A stretch of DNA of 64,000 nucleotides, taken from contig OZ243938.1 of assembly GCA_965214095.1 (NCBI GenBank), forward strand, positions 1,184,001 to 1,248,000, written 5' to 3'. The position numbers and the translations under genes were made by a program. Below the pieces are notes generated by a model. That model did no database searches, had not been told where the DNA came from, and was given only the letters and a program-made list of their open reading frames with translations. The first letter of the stretch is position 1; each line of letters begins with the position of its first letter. Source of the stretch: Candidatus Poribacteria bacterium (GTDB taxonomy: Bacteria; Poribacteria; WGA-4E; WGA-3G). Shown piece by piece: positions 9,674-27,547 of this stretch.

Positions 9674-9716
9674 AATAGATTAGCATTTACAGCTCAACAA
9701 TTATTTACACACTACG

Positions 9717-9786
9717 GTAGGTTCGGTTTCCTAACCGAACCGGTGTTTGTTCAGTCTCATAGATGCGGTTAGGAAACCGCATCTAC
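9717..9786. repeat. REP doublet, family A (GTAGGTTCGGTTTCCTAACCGAACC plus inverted GTAGATGCGGTTTCCTAACCGCATCT); IS-free counterpart of the IS4 target
   Basis: Two GTAG-tagged hairpins in inverted orientation between convergent genes. Confidence 0.85.
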
Positions 9787-9814
9787 CGAGGAGTGGCACA
9801 TGTTTTTACATTCA

Positions 9815-20846: not shown

Positions 20847-22169
20847 ATGGATACCATTATGCAAAAACCTGACCACATCAACAAACAAATATTCCAACTC
20901 GCCATCCCAAATATCATAAGCAACTTCTCCATTCCACTTCTCGGTGCAGTAGATACAGCTTTAATGGGACGTATGGAGACTGATCATTATCTTGGTGCAG
21001 TAGGCATCGGTGGTGTTATTTTTAGTTTCATTTACTGGGGTTTCGGTTTCATCAGAATGGCATCCACAGGTTTGACAGCACAAGCATACGGAGAAAATGA
21101 TAACGAAGAATGTGGTCTTCTCCTGCAACGGTGCTTTTCAATCGGTGTCATCTGCAGCATCCTGTTATTGATGTTTCAGTGGGTGCTGGCAGATGTTAGT
21201 TTTCTTCTCATCGGAACAAGTCCAGAAGTAGAAAAACTTGCCCGAACCTATTTCCATATCCGTATCTATGCAGCACCTGCAACACTTTGTCTTCATGCAT
21301 TCCACGGCATTTTTCTCGGATTACAAAATGCCAAATATCCGATGATATTGACAATTCTCGTCAATATCATCAATATCGTGTTGAACATTGTTTTTGTGAT
21401 GCAGCTTGGCATGAAGGTGGAAGGTGTAGCATTAGCAACCGTCATCGCGCAATATGGTGGTCTGATATTTGCAATTGCGTTCTTTTTCCATCGCTACCGA
21501 AATCTATTCACCACATGGAATTTCAAAACAATCCTCTCCTACTCAAAACTTAGACGTTTCTTAAGCATAAGTGGAGACATTTTTATCCGCACGCTCTGTC
21601 TTGTTTTCAGTTTCTCCTTCTTCACCGCTATGTCAGCTGGAATAAGCGATACAATCTTAGCAATCAATACTATTCTCCTTCAATATATCAACCTAATGTC
21701 TTATGCCATTGATGGTTTCGCATTTGCTGCAGAGAGTATGATAGGCAAGTATATTGGCGCACGAGATATACAAAACCTAAAGAGAACAACCGGTCAGATT
21801 TTTCTATGGTCTTTTCTGTTCGGTGGGATTGTAATGCTAATCTTTCTTCTATTTGCGAACCAGCTCCTACACTTATTCACAGATAAACTCAATCTAATTG
21901 AAAATGCAAAACCGTATCTCGTATGGATCATCATTGCCCCGGTTGTGAACGTAGCTGCATATATTTGGGATGGTATATACCTTGGTGCAACTGCGACAAA
22001 ACCTTTGCGGAACACTATGATTGTTTCTATGCTACTATTTACCAGTGCAGTATATCTATTGCTACCTTATGGCAACCATGGACTTTGGGGAGCGTTAACG
22101 TTCCTATTAGTGATACGAGGCGTGGCATTGACATTCATAGCACCAAGACATCTATTCAGTCGAAATTGA
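20847..22169 (+). CDS. dinF: MATE-family efflux transporter (DinF-like)
   Basis: LAIPNIISN..PLLGAVDTA.MG, GFIRMASTGLTAQA.G; many TM helices; start 20847 or 20859. Confidence 0.88.
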   Translation: MDTIMQKPDHINKQIFQLAIPNIISNFSIPLLGAVDTALMGRMETDHYLGAVGIGGVIFSFIYWGFGFIRMASTGLTAQAYGENDNEECGLLLQRCFSIGVICSILLLMFQWVLADVSFLLIGTSPEVEKLARTYFHIRIYAAPATLCLHAFHGIFLGLQNAKYPMILTILVNIINIVLNIVFVMQLGMKVEGVALATVIAQYGGLIFAIAFFFHRYRNLFTTWNFKTILSYSKLRRFLSISGDIFIRTLCLVFSFSFFTAMSAGISDTILAINTILLQYINLMSYAIDGFAFAAESMIGKYIGARDIQNLKRTTGQIFLWSFLFGGIVMLIFLLFANQLLHLFTDKLNLIENAKPYLVWIIIAPVVNVAAYIWDGIYLGATATKPLRNTMIVSMLLFTSAVYLLLPYGNHGLWGALTFLLVIRGVALTFIAPRHLFSRN

Positions 22170-22197
22170 TTGATGAAACTATGCTGGTAGACACACT

Positions 22198-22255
22198 TTA
22201 TAGCAAAAACCATAATTATTTACACACTACGGTAGGTTCGGTTTCCTAACCGAAC
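22198..22255. repeat. Left part of a family A REP element, ending in the 20-bp duplicated target
   Basis: TTATTTACACACTACGGTAGGTTCGGTTTCCTAACCGAAC is identical to 9701-9740. Confidence 0.85.
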
Positions 22256-23743
22256 CATAGGCGTCAATTTAAGGATGCACCAAGACCGATAAGTGTCAAC
22301 TTTTAATCAGAGGAAGTATAAATTATGAAATAAAACTTCTGTAAAAATGAAAACACCTCATATATAATGTAGATATAGATTTATTATGGTCTACAAAGAG
22401 GTGTTTCCTAATGAATACATTATCACAAGTTCCCAAAGAAATGCAACATATTCTTACAACTATAGCCAATGATGCAGCTCTCAATACAGGTTTTGTCAAA
22501 AGAAGTTGTAAACTCAACGGTAGTCGTTTTGCTCAAATACTCATTTGGACTTGGTTAGAAAACCCAGATGCCACCTATACACAACTTGCGCAAACCGCTG
22601 GTGTGCTGGGGATTTCAATCTCACGACAAGCCATTGAACAACGATTTACATCTGAAGCAGCAGAGACCCTGAAAGTTATCCTTGATGCTACTGCGTCCAA
22701 GGTTATTTCTGCCGACCCGCAAACGCTTCCGCTCCTTGAAAAGTTCACTGGTGTCTATTTACAAGATAGTTCTTGGATTACACTCCCTGATGTGCTCCAC
22801 GAAACTTGGGAAGGTGGAAGCAAAAAGAATAAACCGAACACAGCTGCCGTGAAACTCCACCTGCGTTTTGATAGTGCCACAGGCACTTTTGAACACTTTG
22901 AACTGACCAATGGTATCACCGCTGATAGTGCTATTGAAAAGCAGATTGACATGCTACCCGCCGGCAGTTTGCGCCTCGCAGACCTCGGCTATTATTCACT
23001 TGATACCTTCAAAAGACTTTCCGATGCAAACGTCTTTTGGATATCACGCTACAAAGTCCAGTGTTTTCTCTATGATGAAACAGGTGACCCTTTTTGTTTG
23101 CTAAAATGGCTCAAGAAGGGTTCTAATAACTTCAAGGACAAACAAATCTTTATAGGTAAAAACAAGCGTCTCAAAGCACGATTAGTTGTTCAAAGACTTT
23201 CAGAAACAGAAACCCAACAGCGTATTAAGGAGATAAAACATCGTGCAAAGCGGAAGTATACGAAACCTTCACCCAAACGACTTCAGCTCGCAAGATGGAA
23301 TATCTACATTACTAATATAAAAGTAGACCATCTGACTGCTGAACAGATTTGTGCTGTCGCACGCATCCGATGGCAGGTTGAGTTGATGTTCAAGTGCTTC
23401 AAAAGCATTGGAAAAGTTGATACCTCCCGTAGCGACAAGCCATATAGAATCTTATGTGAGTTATATGCAAAACTCATCGTCGCAATTATGCGGCACTGGA
23501 TCATGTTAAGGGTCGGTTGGCGATGTCTAAAACATAGTCTAACAAAAACAGCAGAACTTATTAGCACCTTCGCACGCACACTTGCAATAGGTTTCCGCAA
23601 GTCTATAATGTCTTTTCGGCAAACTTTTGATGAAATAAAACACGCTTTCCAAAATGGGTGCTACATTGAGAGACGTGCTAATAGAGACACAACATTAGAA
23701 CACCTTGAAAATGCAGCAAAAAATCACTAAATTGACGCCTATG
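22256..23743 (+). mobile_element. IS4-family insertion sequence (CAT...ATG ends) with 16-bp TIR and 20-bp target duplication
   Basis: TIRs CATAGGCGTCAATTTA / TAAATTGACGCCTATG; direct repeat GTTCGGTTTCCTAACCGAAC at 22236-22255 and 23744-23763. Confidence 0.92.
22411..23730 (+). CDS. IS4-family DDE transposase
   Basis: YLQDSS, LADLGYY, ITN, R.RWQVELMFK..KS (YREK-like signature). Confidence 0.93.
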   Translation: MNTLSQVPKEMQHILTTIANDAALNTGFVKRSCKLNGSRFAQILIWTWLENPDATYTQLAQTAGVLGISISRQAIEQRFTSEAAETLKVILDATASKVISADPQTLPLLEKFTGVYLQDSSWITLPDVLHETWEGGSKKNKPNTAAVKLHLRFDSATGTFEHFELTNGITADSAIEKQIDMLPAGSLRLADLGYYSLDTFKRLSDANVFWISRYKVQCFLYDETGDPFCLLKWLKKGSNNFKDKQIFIGKNKRLKARLVVQRLSETETQQRIKEIKHRAKRKYTKPSPKRLQLARWNIYITNIKVDHLTAEQICAVARIRWQVELMFKCFKSIGKVDTSRSDKPYRILCELYAKLIVAIMRHWIMLRVGWRCLKHSLTKTAELISTFARTLAIGFRKSIMSFRQTFDEIKHAFQNGCYIERRANRDTTLEHLENAAKNH

Positions 23744-23843
23744 GTTCGGTTTCCTAACCGAACCGGTGTTTATTCAGTCACATAGATGTGGTTAGGTAAC
23801 CGAACCTACTGGGAGTGTGTACATATTTTTAGATTTCACTATA
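23744..23843. repeat. Right part of the family A REP doublet
   Basis: Continues CGGTGTTTATTCAGTCACATAGATGTGGTTAGG..., matching 9741-9790; ends AGATTTCACTATA. Confidence 0.85.
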
Positions 23844-23875: not shown

Positions 23876-26800
23876 TTAGTTGGTCGGATCACAATCATCA
23901 TCTTCAAGATATGAAATTATTGTGGCAATACCAAGTATATCATCCGAAGTATTGTCATCAATTTCAGGATATGTCACGCCTTGTTCACTGGTACTCCAAG
24001 TTCCAGTATTGTGCACGGCATTACAAATTGTCTTGTAGATCGCCTTGCGTACCTCATCAGCTGTTGTATTCTTCAATGATACCTTTGTATTAGCGTGTGT
24101 GAACCCACTTTCCTCAGTATAAACTCCTTTCCAACTGTCTAAGCTATTAGAGACTGACAGTTCTTCTAAGACTGAACTCCATCCAGTCGAAGTCTGCTCA
24201 GAATCACCATCTTCAAATTTATAATAGTTGTCCACATAAATTGGATCCTCTCCATCGTATCCGTACCCACGTATGGCATAGACTTGGACTTGCAAGTGGT
24301 CAGAATCAAGTTTGATGGCATAATAAACTTCAAAGAACTCTTCCTTCTCTACATAGAATTCAAGCACTTCAATTTCTACCGTAATTGTGTCCGTTCCGCC
24401 ATTGTTATCCGTGACAGATACGGTAACGGTATAAGACGACTGAATGTCATAATCAAGAGTGGAATTGGTAGTCAACTGACCATTACTAGTATTAAAACTG
24501 AAGGAACTTGCATCAGTACCACTGATACTATATGCAAGCGTATCTTCGTCTTCATCTGTTGCTGACACAGCATGTCCAACGTTGGAACCTGACGCAGCAG
24601 ACTCAATAATAGCACGTAATGCCTTCTCACCTTCCGTGAACACTGGAGCATCATTAACATCGGTTATACTGACTGTTAGAAATGTTCCATTTTTACCACC
24701 TCTGCCATCAGAGACACTGACTGTAACAGAGTAGGAGGATTTCTCTTCGTGATTAAAAATTTCATTGGTTGTTATCTGTCCCGTGTTCATATCTATACTG
24801 AAGAACTCTACATCCGTCCCGGCAAGACTGTATTCAAGCGTATCATCATCTTCATCTGTCGCCTCTACTGGATCACCGACCAATGTACCAATTGCTAAAT
24901 TCTCTGCTACCGAACGTGATGAGAAAAATCCATCCGTGAAAATAGGTTTATCGTTCTCATCTGACACACTGATTGAGACCGCTATTTCGTCTGTGCCACC
25001 ATTGTTATCGGTGACAGTTACCGATACAGAATAACTATCCTTGACCTCGTAATTAAATTTCGCTTTTGTTGTTATCTGTCCAGATGAGTCATTAATATTA
25101 AAGGAATCCGCATCTGTCCCCATAAGATCGTATTCAAGCGTATCTTCATCTTCATCTGTTGCCTCTACTGGATCGCCTACCACTGTCCCAGGAGACAAAT
25201 TCTCTGCTACTGAACGATTCGTTCCTGTTCCCTCTGTGAATATGGGCTCATCATTCACATCACTAACATTGATTGTAACTGCTATTTCGTCTGTGCCACC
25301 ATTGTTATCAGTAACAGTAACTTCAACCGAATAAGTGCTTTTGACTTCATGATCTAAAATAGCAGTGGTTGTTATCTGTCCAGATGAGGCATTGATATTA
25401 AAGGAAGCAGCATCGGTACCTTCAAGATCGTATTCAGGTGTATCCCCATCTTCATCTGTTGCTAAGACCGGTGTGCCTACGACTGCTCCAGATGGCAAGT
25501 TCTCTGCTACGGAACGGGATGTGGAAGCTCCCTCTGTGAATATCGGAGCATCATTCTCATCAGTGACATTGATAGTAACCGCTATTTCGTCTGTACCACC
25601 TTTGTTGTCAGAAACAACAATCGATACGGAATAAGAGTCTGTGTCTTCATAGTTTAGAGGAGCACTTGTCTTTAACTGACCAGAACTACTATCAATACCG
25701 AAGGAACTTGCATCTGTACCTACAAGTGCATATTCAAGTGTGTCATCGTTTTCATCTGTTGCAGATACAGGATCGCCAATCGAACTATTAGCAAGAGTAT
25801 TCTCTGCTATAGAACGTGTCGTACTCTCTCCTTCTGTAAATTCAGGTGCTTCATTGTCATCAGTGACATTGATCGTAACAGCTATTTCGTCTGTACCATC
25901 TTTGTCATCAGACACGGAGACCAATACAGAATAACTGTTCTTGGTTTCATAGTCTATTGGATCCTTCGTCCTTATCTGCCCCGAACTGCTATCAATACTG
26001 AAGGAACTCGCATCCGTGCCACCGAGAGTGTATTCAAGCGTTTCTCCATCATCATCTGTTGCGGTTACTGGGAGACCAATGGCAACATTAGACGGAGTAT
26101 GCTCTAATACATACCGTATCGTAGATTTACCCTCTGTGAAAACAGGAAGATTATTACATAACGGGATCAACTCAGGAGATAACTTAATTACGGCATCAAC
26201 GACTTCCCCGCCGGTGGATGTAGTTGGGCTAGTTGGAAAGTACTTTGAAACTACTATATCTGAGGTGGTTAAGCCACACCACCGTTTGAAATCGTCGACC
26301 TTAATTGAAATTGTAGTATCGGAGTCATCAAGCTCTGATGGCACTTCACACCACACAGAAAGACCCCACAGGTTCCATTTGTCACCTCTGAAAACTGAAA
26401 AACTGTCCTTTCGTGGATGTACTATATTGCCATCGATATTACATTGAATATCTATGAAAACACCGGGTTGGTTGAGTATCGGTTGGAACGCCATTATTCT
26501 CGGTCCGACCGTCACCTGAAGTTTAACAGTGTTTCCATCAAACACTACGTCATAAATATCCTTATCACCATCTTCAATAATTTTCGGAGGAGTATTTGGA
26601 TCAGTACCATCTTCATTTGGCGTGTTATCACCGTTAGTTGTATCACCGTTAGTTGTATCATCATTTGGCGTGTTATTACCGTCAGTTATTTCACCATTTG
26701 GTGTGTTATTACCGTTAGTTGTATCATCATTCGGCGTGTTATTACCGTCAGTTGTATCACCATTTGGTGTGTTATTACCGTTAGTTGTATCACCATTCGG

Positions 26801-27547
26801 CGTGTTATTTCCGTCAGTTGTATCACCATTTGGTGTGTTATTACCGTTTGGAGTTTCACTTTTTGGTGTGTTATTACCGTCAGTTGTATCACCATTTGGT
26901 GTGTTATTACCGTTTGGAGTTTCACTTTTTGGTGTGTTATTACCGTCAGTTGTATCACCATTTGGTGTGTTATTACCGTTTGGAGTTTCACCATTTAGCG
27001 TATCATCATCCTTGGGTGTAGATACATCATCCGTTTTTGTATCATCTTCAGATTTTATGTCACCTATAGGTGTAGATATAAAAGGCACATCAGTGTCATT
27101 TTCTGGTCGCGGAGCGTCTGAAATAAAGTCAGTCGTTTCATCTACTATATCTTTGATTGGCACATCAATAATGTCGCCAGTTTGTACATATTTCTTGATC
27201 CGTTCAATGATAGAAATAACAATCTCTTCAATATCCACCTCTTTGTTATTATCAATATATCGCGTTTCTATCTGTGTAACTATCTTTTCTACTGGTACTT
27301 CCGTGATGACTTTCTGGGTGACGATACGTTCTATAATCCTTGTGACAACATCCTCAATACGCACCGTTCTTGTTGTTTCATCAACATAGGCACACATAGA
27401 AGGCACGCCTAAGACTTTGTAACAACGAACCGTAACTGTACTAACTTCATCAGAATTGACAACTATAACCCGTTGATTTTCAAACTGTTCACAACCAAAT
27501 ATGATAATTAGACTTAGCAGAATGATACTAATATATCTTTTGAGCAT
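23876..27547 (-). CDS. Large lipoprotein adhesin: V/I/E-rich N-domain, Asn/Thr/Gly repeats, six cadherin-like domains
   Basis: Lipobox-like IFGC; six 100-aa repeats with N.APxFTEG, ATD.D.D.LEY, LDYE, VTD; AGGAG RBS. Confidence 0.88.
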   Translation of the reverse strand: MLKRYISIILLSLIIIFGCEQFENQRVIVVNSDEVSTVTVRCYKVLGVPSMCAYVDETTRTVRIEDVVTRIIERIVTQKVITEVPVEKIVTQIETRYIDNNKEVDIEEIVISIIERIKKYVQTGDIIDVPIKDIVDETTDFISDAPRPENDTDVPFISTPIGDIKSEDDTKTDDVSTPKDDDTLNGETPNGNNTPNGDTTDGNNTPKSETPNGNNTPNGDTTDGNNTPKSETPNGNNTPNGDTTDGNNTPNGDTTNGNNTPNGDTTDGNNTPNDDTTNGNNTPNGEITDGNNTPNDDTTNGDTTNGDNTPNEDGTDPNTPPKIIEDGDKDIYDVVFDGNTVKLQVTVGPRIMAFQPILNQPGVFIDIQCNIDGNIVHPRKDSFSVFRGDKWNLWGLSVWCEVPSELDDSDTTISIKVDDFKRWCGLTTSDIVVSKYFPTSPTTSTGGEVVDAVIKLSPELIPLCNNLPVFTEGKSTIRYVLEHTPSNVAIGLPVTATDDDGETLEYTLGGTDASSFSIDSSSGQIRTKDPIDYETKNSYSVLVSVSDDKDGTDEIAVTINVTDDNEAPEFTEGESTTRSIAENTLANSSIGDPVSATDENDDTLEYALVGTDASSFGIDSSSGQLKTSAPLNYEDTDSYSVSIVVSDNKGGTDEIAVTINVTDENDAPIFTEGASTSRSVAENLPSGAVVGTPVLATDEDGDTPEYDLEGTDAASFNINASSGQITTTAILDHEVKSTYSVEVTVTDNNGGTDEIAVTINVSDVNDEPIFTEGTGTNRSVAENLSPGTVVGDPVEATDEDEDTLEYDLMGTDADSFNINDSSGQITTKAKFNYEVKDSYSVSVTVTDNNGGTDEIAVSISVSDENDKPIFTDGFFSSRSVAENLAIGTLVGDPVEATDEDDDTLEYSLAGTDVEFFSIDMNTGQITTNEIFNHEEKSSYSVTVSVSDGRGGKNGTFLTVSITDVNDAPVFTEGEKALRAIIESAASGSNVGHAVSATDEDEDTLAYSISGTDASSFSFNTSNGQLTTNSTLDYDIQSSYTVTVSVTDNNGGTDTITVEIEVLEFYVEKEEFFEVYYAIKLDSDHLQVQVYAIRGYGYDGEDPIYVDNYYKFEDGDSEQTSTGWSSVLEELSVSNSLDSWKGVYTEESGFTHANTKVSLKNTTADEVRKAIYKTICNAVHNTGTWSTSEQGVTYPEIDDNTSDDILGIATIISYLEDDDCDPTN
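24358..26157 (-). repeat. Six cadherin-like repeats with a 300-bp period
   Basis: Domain junctions recur at ~24657, 24957, 25257, 25557, 25857, 26157. Confidence 0.85.
26616..26996 (-). repeat. Coding tandem repeat: 33-bp units (DTTxGNNTPNG) with a 66-bp higher-order unit
   Basis: About three near-identical 66-nt units at ~26811-26996 plus degenerate 33-nt units. Confidence 0.9.

Follow-up and report, generated by a model that had tools for sequence, protein, structure and literature searches.

An IS231-related insertion sequence of the IS4 family that duplicates 20 bp of target, and with it whole REP stem-loops, in a poribacterial chromosome

The window analysed here is a 64,000-nucleotide stretch (G000:C1:1184001-1248000) of the 5.2-Mb chromosome, contig C1 of genome G000, of a Candidatus Poribacteria bacterium that lives in symbiosis with a sponge. 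It contains an insertion sequence (IS) that sits in a repetitive extragenic palindromic (REP) sequence and is flanked on both sides by a complete copy of the REP stem-loop. This locus raises the question of why an entire hairpin is doubled. The initial annotation proposed that the transposase is guided by the structure of the hairpin. The alternative is that the enzyme duplicates a fixed length of whatever target it enters, and that the hairpin happens to have this length. The second answer is preferred here, with a probability of roughly 0.75. The element would be an IS231-related DDE element with a stagger of ~20 bp and a preference for sequences of the GTAG/G type, where the slash marks the edge of the duplicated segment, and REPs tagged with GTAG would be its hot spots.

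The chromosome holds 13 full-length copies of the IS. They are 98.25-100% identical by BLAST, and the identity ends exactly at the 16-bp inverted repeats. An exact 20-bp direct repeat flanks all 13 copies. The repeat is the REP stem-loop in ten of them, in either orientation of the loop and always in the same register. At the other three (C1:4200153, C1:4265783 and C1:4400707), it is an unrelated, non-palindromic 20-mer inside a gene. The initial annotation described an IS with 16-bp terminal inverted repeats flanked by the REP stem-loop as a direct repeat, and the two exact 20-mers in the window agree with this (Table 1). It also allowed for a 22-bp duplication. That option arises solely from the G before and the C after the hairpin at REP sites. 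The longer version fails at the three non-REP copies, which show that the length is exactly 20 bp.

Removal of the IS and 20 bp in silico at the three genic sites reopens frames of 269, 692, and 315 amino acids (aa) across the junction. The frames are 212, 635, and 206 aa when both repeats are kept. The three copies therefore interrupt genes. As 20 bp are duplicated at REP and non-REP sites alike, the length of the duplication is a property of the enzyme and not of the hairpin. Tabulation of all genomic copies, the check named in the initial annotation, thus gave 20 bp at 13 of 13. It revealed neither copies at random sites with short duplications nor a 20-mer that belongs to the element.

Exact insertion on one of the 431 REP 20-mers of a 5.2-Mb chromosome in 10 of 13 cases has a binomial P of ~4e-39. 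The proposed preference for REPs, with each such insertion doubling the REP, is upheld by these ten copies. Nine of the 10 REP insertions have the GTAG tag on the transposase-upstream side (two-sided P=0.02), an orientation bias that hints at an asymmetric complex. The prediction that removal of the IS and one repeat regenerates a REP doublet is likewise correct, with 100 of 109 aligned columns matching window positions 9699-9808.

The IS has just one open reading frame (ORF), which codes for a DDE transposase without a frameshift. The 439-aa product matches Pfam DDE_Tnp_1 (PF01609, 1.9e-22), the sole Pfam family found. Its best NCBIfam model is NF033592 transpos_IS4_1, with a score of 195.9 bits (cut-off 115). 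Both matches support the IS4-type identity assigned in the initial annotation, and neither points to the IS1182 family. The catalytic residues D119, D191, and E324 are invariant in nine clade sequences, with spacers of 71 and 132 residues. This spacing falls within the IS4-family definition, D(60-110)D(100-150)E (PMC2266710). The Y(2)R(3)E(6)K signature is incomplete in this copy, where R320, E324, and K331 are present and position 317 is Ala. This position is variable in the lineage, being Val, Phe, or Leu in other members and Tyr in L015, L031, and L067. A search of solved structures with the transposase sequence returned just a weak Tn5 match (E=0.12) around the catalytic Glu.

Duplications in the IS4 family are 7-13 bp, about one helical turn, across all subgroups listed in Table 1 of PMC2266710. 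The 20-bp duplication lies outside this range, at about twice the usual length. The element is an IS231-related lineage of the IS4 family that departs from the family hallmarks, and not an ordinary member. It is classed in this way because the duplication is 20 bp in all 13 copies, and because 81 of the 82 related loci with a repeat have 17-22 bp.

These related loci were pooled from three sets (41 + 79 + 8, 128 in total). Ends were called by anchoring on the conserved CAT...TCA termini, and a repeat was counted when it had at least 10 bp with no more than 2 mismatches. Both ends were callable at 101 loci, and a repeat was present at 82 of these. Its length was 12 bp at one locus, 17 bp at two, 18 bp at nine, 19 bp at 20, 20 bp at 31, 21 bp at 18, and 22 bp at one. 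Relatives at 33% identity or more are found in Poribacteria, Chloroflexota, and Planctomycetota and have 17-22-bp duplications of the form GGG…CCC. A second scan placed the lineage in a few other phyla as well. The records of the relatives name just an "IS4 family transposase", without an ISfinder element name.

Within Poribacteria, L006 (84% identity) has a 20-bp duplication. In a group at ~55% identity, 11 loci have 19 bp and four have 20 bp, mostly within a different REP, and relatives at 47-49% identity duplicate 17 bp (2 loci) or 18 bp (6 exact). The copy on a Herpetosiphon plasmid (35% identity) has 19-21 bp, and that on a Chlorohelix plasmid (34% identity) has 20 bp (GGG...CCC). Genome G002 has 11 copies, with 21 bp in five, 22 bp in one, no exact repeat in four, and one 17-bp case in a rearranged tandem. 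This last case (L131 = L165) was considered as a cut that tracks the hairpin and was rejected, as it belongs to a tandem pair whose partner has no repeat, which indicates a rearranged site. Genome G003 carries a second IS type, ~68% alike in DNA to L011, with no exact flanking repeat at any of its four copies (L185-L188). The hairpins flanking L188 are reverse complements of each other, with the loop inverted, a pattern that would fit exchange between copies in oppositely oriented REPs.

More distant relatives, at 26-30% identity, occur in Clostridia and Bacteroidota. Candidate ends were found at 9 of the 14 loci tried. The repeat was an exact 11 bp at four loci, 11 bp with one mismatch at one, 7 bp at one, and absent at three; three of the 11-mers read GGG-N5-CCC. 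A FastTree phylogeny of 43 rows separates six short-duplication rows, including the annotated IS231B, from 37 long-duplication rows with a branch support of 100. Rows more than 95% identical were collapsed, and L089 and L040 were dropped as very long rows that are probably mis-framed ORFs. About one helical turn separates 11 bp from 20 bp, and the lineage appears to have kept the half-site and added one such turn to the stagger.

The ends of the IS also define a set of miniature inverted-repeat transposable elements (MITEs). The 16-mer end occurs 163 times in the genome with up to 2 mismatches, and relaxing the limit to 3 mismatches gives 113 ends of the left type and 102 of the right type. 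Ends were paired when they lay 100-420 bp or 1480-1495 bp apart and were flanked by a repeat with no more than 3 mismatches. This rule yields 40 elements. Thirteen are the IS copies, and the other 27 are small, with lengths of 169-361 bp and in most cases 171 bp. The MITE counts cover these paired ends. The duplication is 20 bp at 21 MITEs, 19 bp at five, and 21 bp at one. Ten of the 27 are in a REP and 17 are elsewhere.

An alignment of 20 MITEs, 18 of them canonical, gives a common build. It consists of an end, an arm of ~17 nt, GGTAG-REP, a spacer of ~45 nt, an inverted REP-CTACC, an arm of ~27 nt, and the other end. Common 16-bp ends, the lack of coding capacity, and duplications of 19-21 bp mark these MITEs as derived from the IS. 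Their internal REP doublet means that they carry the preferred target of the IS. They are presumably mobilised in trans by the same transposase.

Target choice was compared at the 15 unique non-REP targets, a class that requires more than 6 differences from the REP over the 20 positions. Of 10 possible pairs between their halves, 3.33 are complementary on average, and the value for random genomic G...C 20-mers is 3.30 (P=0.48). Across the pooled half-sites (n=30, both strands), G is present at -4 in 17 and T at -3 in 22; A occupies -2 in 16, and G occupies -1 in 18 and +1 in 25. Binomial P values against base composition are 5e-3 to 3e-13. The pooled half-site reads GTAG/G, which is the REP tag plus the first REP base. 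An exact GTAG or CTAC adjoins the repeat at 6 of the 15 targets, and 3 of the 6 are in other GTAG-tagged palindrome families. The MITE at C1:5180447, in another REP family, directly follows GTAG and does not keep to the register of the hairpin there; the tag and not the hairpin sets its position. Structure-guided targeting, as put forward in the initial annotation, is not borne out. A duplication of the same length arises at 3 of 13 IS sites and at further MITE sites without a hairpin, non-REP targets are no more palindromic than random sequence, and a GTAG/G half-site is found instead. These comparisons suggest that the target is recognised by sequence rather than by shape.

The related loci have a similar half-site, with G at +1 in 100 of 108 pooled half-sites. 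Many of their targets are GTAG-GGGC...GCCC-CTAC REPs of the respective genome. A second family of GTAG-tagged palindromes is present in contig C1 of G000 (e.g., 5180420-5180470 and 3628100-3628160), with a stem of GTAGGTCGGGT and a loop of ~13-14 nt. In other Poribacteria genomes, the 47-57%-identity relatives insert preferentially into this family.

In the strongest rival, an extruded hairpin or cruciform is what the transposase recognises. Cutting of both strands at the base of the stem would then duplicate the whole stem-loop. The exact stem-loop is duplicated in 10 of 13 IS and 10 of 27 MITE insertions, REPs are over-used relative to GTAGG sites, and other palindromes serve as 19-20-bp targets (e.g., C1:1881012 and C1:969192). 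Among the 55%-identity relatives, the duplication is mostly 20 bp where the REP loop has 14 nt and 19 bp where it has 13 nt. A cruciform would also bring the cut sites close together and could ease a 20-bp stagger. However, the duplication is also 20 bp at non-palindromic sites. Perfect stems are not commoner among targeted REPs (30/40 and 23/32) than among all REPs (357/431), and imperfect stems are used. The REP variant entered at L011 with a 20-bp duplication has 19 bp at L024, and the length therefore does not strictly track the loop. In relatives, the repeat spans only the inner 3-4 stem pairs and the loop of the REP. It comprises 3 pairs and the loop in the 55% group, where the same length is found at three other targets, the non-palindromic L010 and L017 and an unrelated palindrome, L040. 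At L172 of G002, the hairpin has 17 nt, and the repeat extends from its GGG to 4 nt beyond it. Moreover, 39 of the 54 unique targets in other genomes are non-palindromic at their ends and still start with G (70/78), G (65/78), and G (47/78). Recognition of the hairpin is considered unlikely on this evidence.

Insertion at random, with survivors retained only in harmless REPs, is very improbable. REPs are presumably neutral, and the presence of 3 of 13 copies in open reading frames means that REP specificity is not absolute. Selection cannot yield one single-base register across all 20 REP insertions, nor can it explain the half-site common to non-REP targets, and the near-identity of the copies (98.25-100%) marks them as recent. 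It has also been considered that the 20-mer is a constant part of the element ends, or that the repeat results from site-specific recombination with a REP. Most copies are flanked by the same 20-mer, and the MITEs hold the same hairpin internally. Even so, unrelated 20-mers flank three IS copies and at least 12 MITEs and are duplicated there exactly, at the same boundary. BLAST identity stops at the 16-bp termini, and the sole ORF encodes a DDE transposase. The existence of the non-REP copies refutes this last explanation.

Several observations weigh against a fixed stagger combined with sequence preference. REPs account for ~6% of the 6514 GTAGG sites yet received 10 of the 13 IS insertions (P ~1e-10). 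This over-use means that recognition must involve more than the pentamer. Candidates for the additional preference are a deeper reading of the arm, the use of both half-sites, help from a hairpin or cruciform, and the loss of genic insertions. Several of the "non-REP" MITE targets are other GTAG-tagged palindromes, and part of the GTAG signal therefore comes from REP-like DNA. The match to GTAG is only partial at the three genic IS sites. Among the related loci, 19 of the 101 with both ends called have no repeat. One lineage member, L135, from a metagenome-assembled genome of Planctomycetaceae, has a 12-bp repeat (GGG-N6-CCC) and sits on the long-duplication side of the tree. A reversion, a rearranged site, or chance could account for this short repeat. 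In the window copy, Ala takes the place of the Tyr of the YREK signature. Lastly, the tree is rooted by midpoint only, and many of its rows deviate in composition.

The reading that best accommodates these results is a putatively active cut-and-paste DDE IS from an IS231-related lineage of the IS4 family. Its transpososome would join the element ends to target phosphates staggered by ~20 bp (17-22 bp across the lineage, ~11 bp in IS231-type elements). Gap repair would then leave a 20-bp duplication at any target. The target would be chosen mainly by sequence, through a half-site of (G)TAG/G(K)(K) in this genome and G/GGG in relatives, ideally present on both strands ~20 bp apart. GTAG-tagged REPs would supply this motif hundreds of times and so act as hot spots. 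The hairpin that follows GTAG happens to be exactly 20 nt in this genome, and the entire stem-loop would be doubled for this reason. The same enzyme presumably moves the ~171-bp MITEs with their REP doublet, and the system would thereby carry and multiply its own preferred target. The features of the locus are listed in Table 1.

Table 1. Features of the IS insertion and of the IS-free REP doublet in the 64,000-nt window (IRL and IRR, left and right inverted repeats).
Feature	Position	Strand	Remarks
Insertion sequence, 1488 bp	22256..23743	+	One of 13 genome copies, 98.25-100% identical
IRL, 16 bp, perfect inverted repeat	22256..22271	+	Matches the IS231-subgroup end consensus CAT-------AA--TAA (PMC2266710, Table 1)
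IRR, 16 bp	23728..23743	-	Overlaps the stop codon of the transposase gene
Transposase gene, 439 aa, DDE type	22411..23730	+	D119, D191, and E324 invariant in clade alignment
GTAG tag directly 5' of the duplicated 20-mer	22232..22235	+	From sequence; belongs to the preferred half-site GTAG/G
Left 20-bp target-site duplication	22236..22255	+	REP stem-loop, 8-bp stem, 4-nt loop
Right 20-bp target-site duplication	23744..23763	+	Identical to the left copy
Second REP of the doublet (REPIN-like), inverted, slightly degenerate, then CTAC	23786..23809	-	From sequence; comparison with 9699-9808
IS-free paralogue of the same REP doublet	9699..9808	+	One long hairpin, -43.2 kcal/mol (RNA parameters)

The REP 20-mer at the IS is preceded by GGTAG and folds at -14.4 kcal/mol with RNA parameters. 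The genome has 358 such 20-mers by a strict definition and 431 by a relaxed one of up to 3 substitutions, and 390 of the 431 have GTAG on the 5' side or CTAC on the 3' side. Spacings of 40-69 nt dominate among the doublets. These short, tagged, high-copy palindromes, often in inverted doublets, qualify as GTAG-tagged REPs and REPINs (paired REPs that form hairpins).

Of the 431 REPs, 71 abut an element end, 121 lie 10-40 nt inside one (11 of them also abutting an end), and 41 are otherwise within 200 nt of an end. In all, 222 REPs, about half, touch an element end or have one within 200 nt, and the other 209 do not. REPs are elsewhere linked to REP-associated tyrosine transposases (RAYTs). None flanked by these REPs was recognised among five PF01797 hits in this genome, which is 94.5% complete, so that one could have been missed. 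Four of the five hits are IS200/IS605 TnpA proteins accompanied by TnpB; the fifth is a partial frame of 108 aa with no REP within 1.5 kb. The IS200/IS605-type element is present in four copies (C1:81623-81976, 2170036-2170389, 2385609-2385962, and 4230081-4230434), in each of which a TnpB-like ORF of 420 aa comes after a Y1 transposase of 138 aa.

A broader proposal is offered tentatively. The whole DDE lineage may have moved its stagger from one helical turn (11 bp, GGG-N5-CCC) to two (~20 bp, GGG-N14-CCC) with the same half-site, and the IS with its REP-carrying MITEs may be the main engine of REP multiplication in this genome, in which no RAYT is recognisable. Each MITE insertion would then add two carried REPs and one duplicated REP.

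MITEs are also nested and arranged in tandem in the genome. Such pieces are located at C1:2057070-2057414, 1562320-1562616, 3668732-3669129, and 4990821-4991128. One of them is an array of four successive right ends with a 58-bp period, the unit being a REP, a 22-nt arm, and an end. This array suggests repeated insertion into a flanking or carried REP, or unequal exchange between REPs.

Excision footprints, expected as tandem hairpins, were not seen among the REP 20-mers of the genome. None of the 430 successive pairs is less than 30 nt apart, and the closest are 33 nt apart, start to start. Public runs, compared as contigs and not as reads, provided two candidates for an orthologous empty site, and both were rejected. 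One contig of run X6 joins 22234 to 23743, a skip of 1508 bp, but its shorter side has only 34 letters, and it may come from any IS-free paralogue of the doublet. One contig of run X3, from a relative ~91% alike, has 37 other letters in place of 22160-23840, without the doublet and the IS. The intergenic stretch 22160-23840 thus varies between strains.

Directly downstream of the IS, a 1223-aa ORF occupies window positions 23876-27547 on the minus strand. It has a long run of TPNG/DTT(D/N)GNN repeats followed by ~6 repeats that look cadherin-like by eye. Contig C2 of the same assembly (32,066 bp) has a G+C content of 64.1%, compared with 41.1% for the chromosome, and may be foreign or mis-binned.

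The finding is of moderate to high interest for mobile-DNA specialists. Target-duplication length counts as a constant trait of each transposase family, since it mirrors how the active sites are arranged on the target. A coherent lineage that duplicates ~20 bp, next to 11-bp relatives that share its end bases, amounts to a natural experiment on target measurement by a Tn5-like transpososome. There are consequences for annotation as well. Tools that seek repeats of 2-14 bp will mis-call such ends, and palindromic targets make the inverted repeats appear longer than they are. MITEs that hold a REP doublet and insert into REPs would be a route of REP spread without a RAYT, linking two kinds of small repeat.

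Elements that target REPs are known from several families. The initial annotation was right to name IS3 and IS110 members, but its list was incomplete, as members of IS4 (ISRm22), IS256, and IS5 are also reported (PMC1525189). ISRm22 of Sinorhizobium meliloti belongs to the IS4Sa subgroup of the IS4 family, and 9 of its 9 copies are in REPs with a palindromic consensus (PMC1525189 and PMC2266710). It makes 6-bp repeats at the axis of the palindrome and splits the REP, whereas the element described here doubles it, and the two belong to different subgroups.

IS1397/ISKpn1 and ISPsy8 of the IS3 family, and ISPpu9/ISPpu10, ISPa11, and IS621 of the IS110 family, also insert at a fixed position in REPs with high selectivity (PMC1525189). 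These elements use other chemistry, leave repeats of 0-3 bp, and break the REP in two. Members of the IS110 family are reported to be guided by an RNA.

ISCbo5/ISBma2 of the IS1182 family are found at sites that, with one exception, are flanked by hairpin-forming inverted repeats and are hairpin terminators (PMC3098183). Their transposase family differs, and the passage on them does not describe a fixed 20-bp duplication at non-hairpin sites. IS1634 and IS1549, of the IS4-related IS1634 family, have unusually long direct repeats (PMC2266710). Copies of those elements differ in repeat length from 8 to 514 bp, whereas each element here keeps its length within ~1 bp.

GTAG-tagged REPs were described by Di Nocera et al. 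in 2013, including REP dimers inside long inverted repeats in Anabaena variabilis, and no IS was linked to them there (PMC3733652). These dimers have the same build as the MITEs here. Paired examples from Nostocales that match the published consensus have a best exact flanking repeat of 2-7 bp in 9 of 9 cases. Palindrome-framed REP dimers of Nostocales were therefore rejected as products of such an enzyme. A separate MITE case is found in the Nostocales loci L201-L280, where small elements with inverted ends TATAGGA...ATTTGATT carry a GTAG-tagged REP dimer as cargo.

No prokaryotic IS with fixed repeats of ~20 bp was found in the published literature, a search that ISfinder and TnPedia lay outside and in which the papers listed dealt with eukaryotes or CRISPR, and nothing related was found in the literature on Poribacteria and IS. 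A member of the lineage could be contained in the supplements of PMC2266710, which list the elements of each subgroup.

The closest known system is the IS231 subgroup (IS231A and others) of the Bacillus cereus group. Like the present element, its members have a single DDE_Tnp_1 transposase and ends that fit CAT-------AA--TAA (PMC2266710). The nearest annotated relative of the transposase is IS231B, at 27% identity. The published target consensus of IS231A is symmetric with G-rich and C-rich ends. A symmetric target with such ends is shared here, and the 26-30% relatives have it as GGG-N5-CCC. The two differ in the duplication, which is 10-12 bp in the IS231 subgroup and 20 bp here (17-22 bp in the lineage), and in the Tyr of the YREK signature, which is not conserved here. 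The present lineage also stands on a separate branch, prefers REPs, and has given rise to MITEs that carry REPs.

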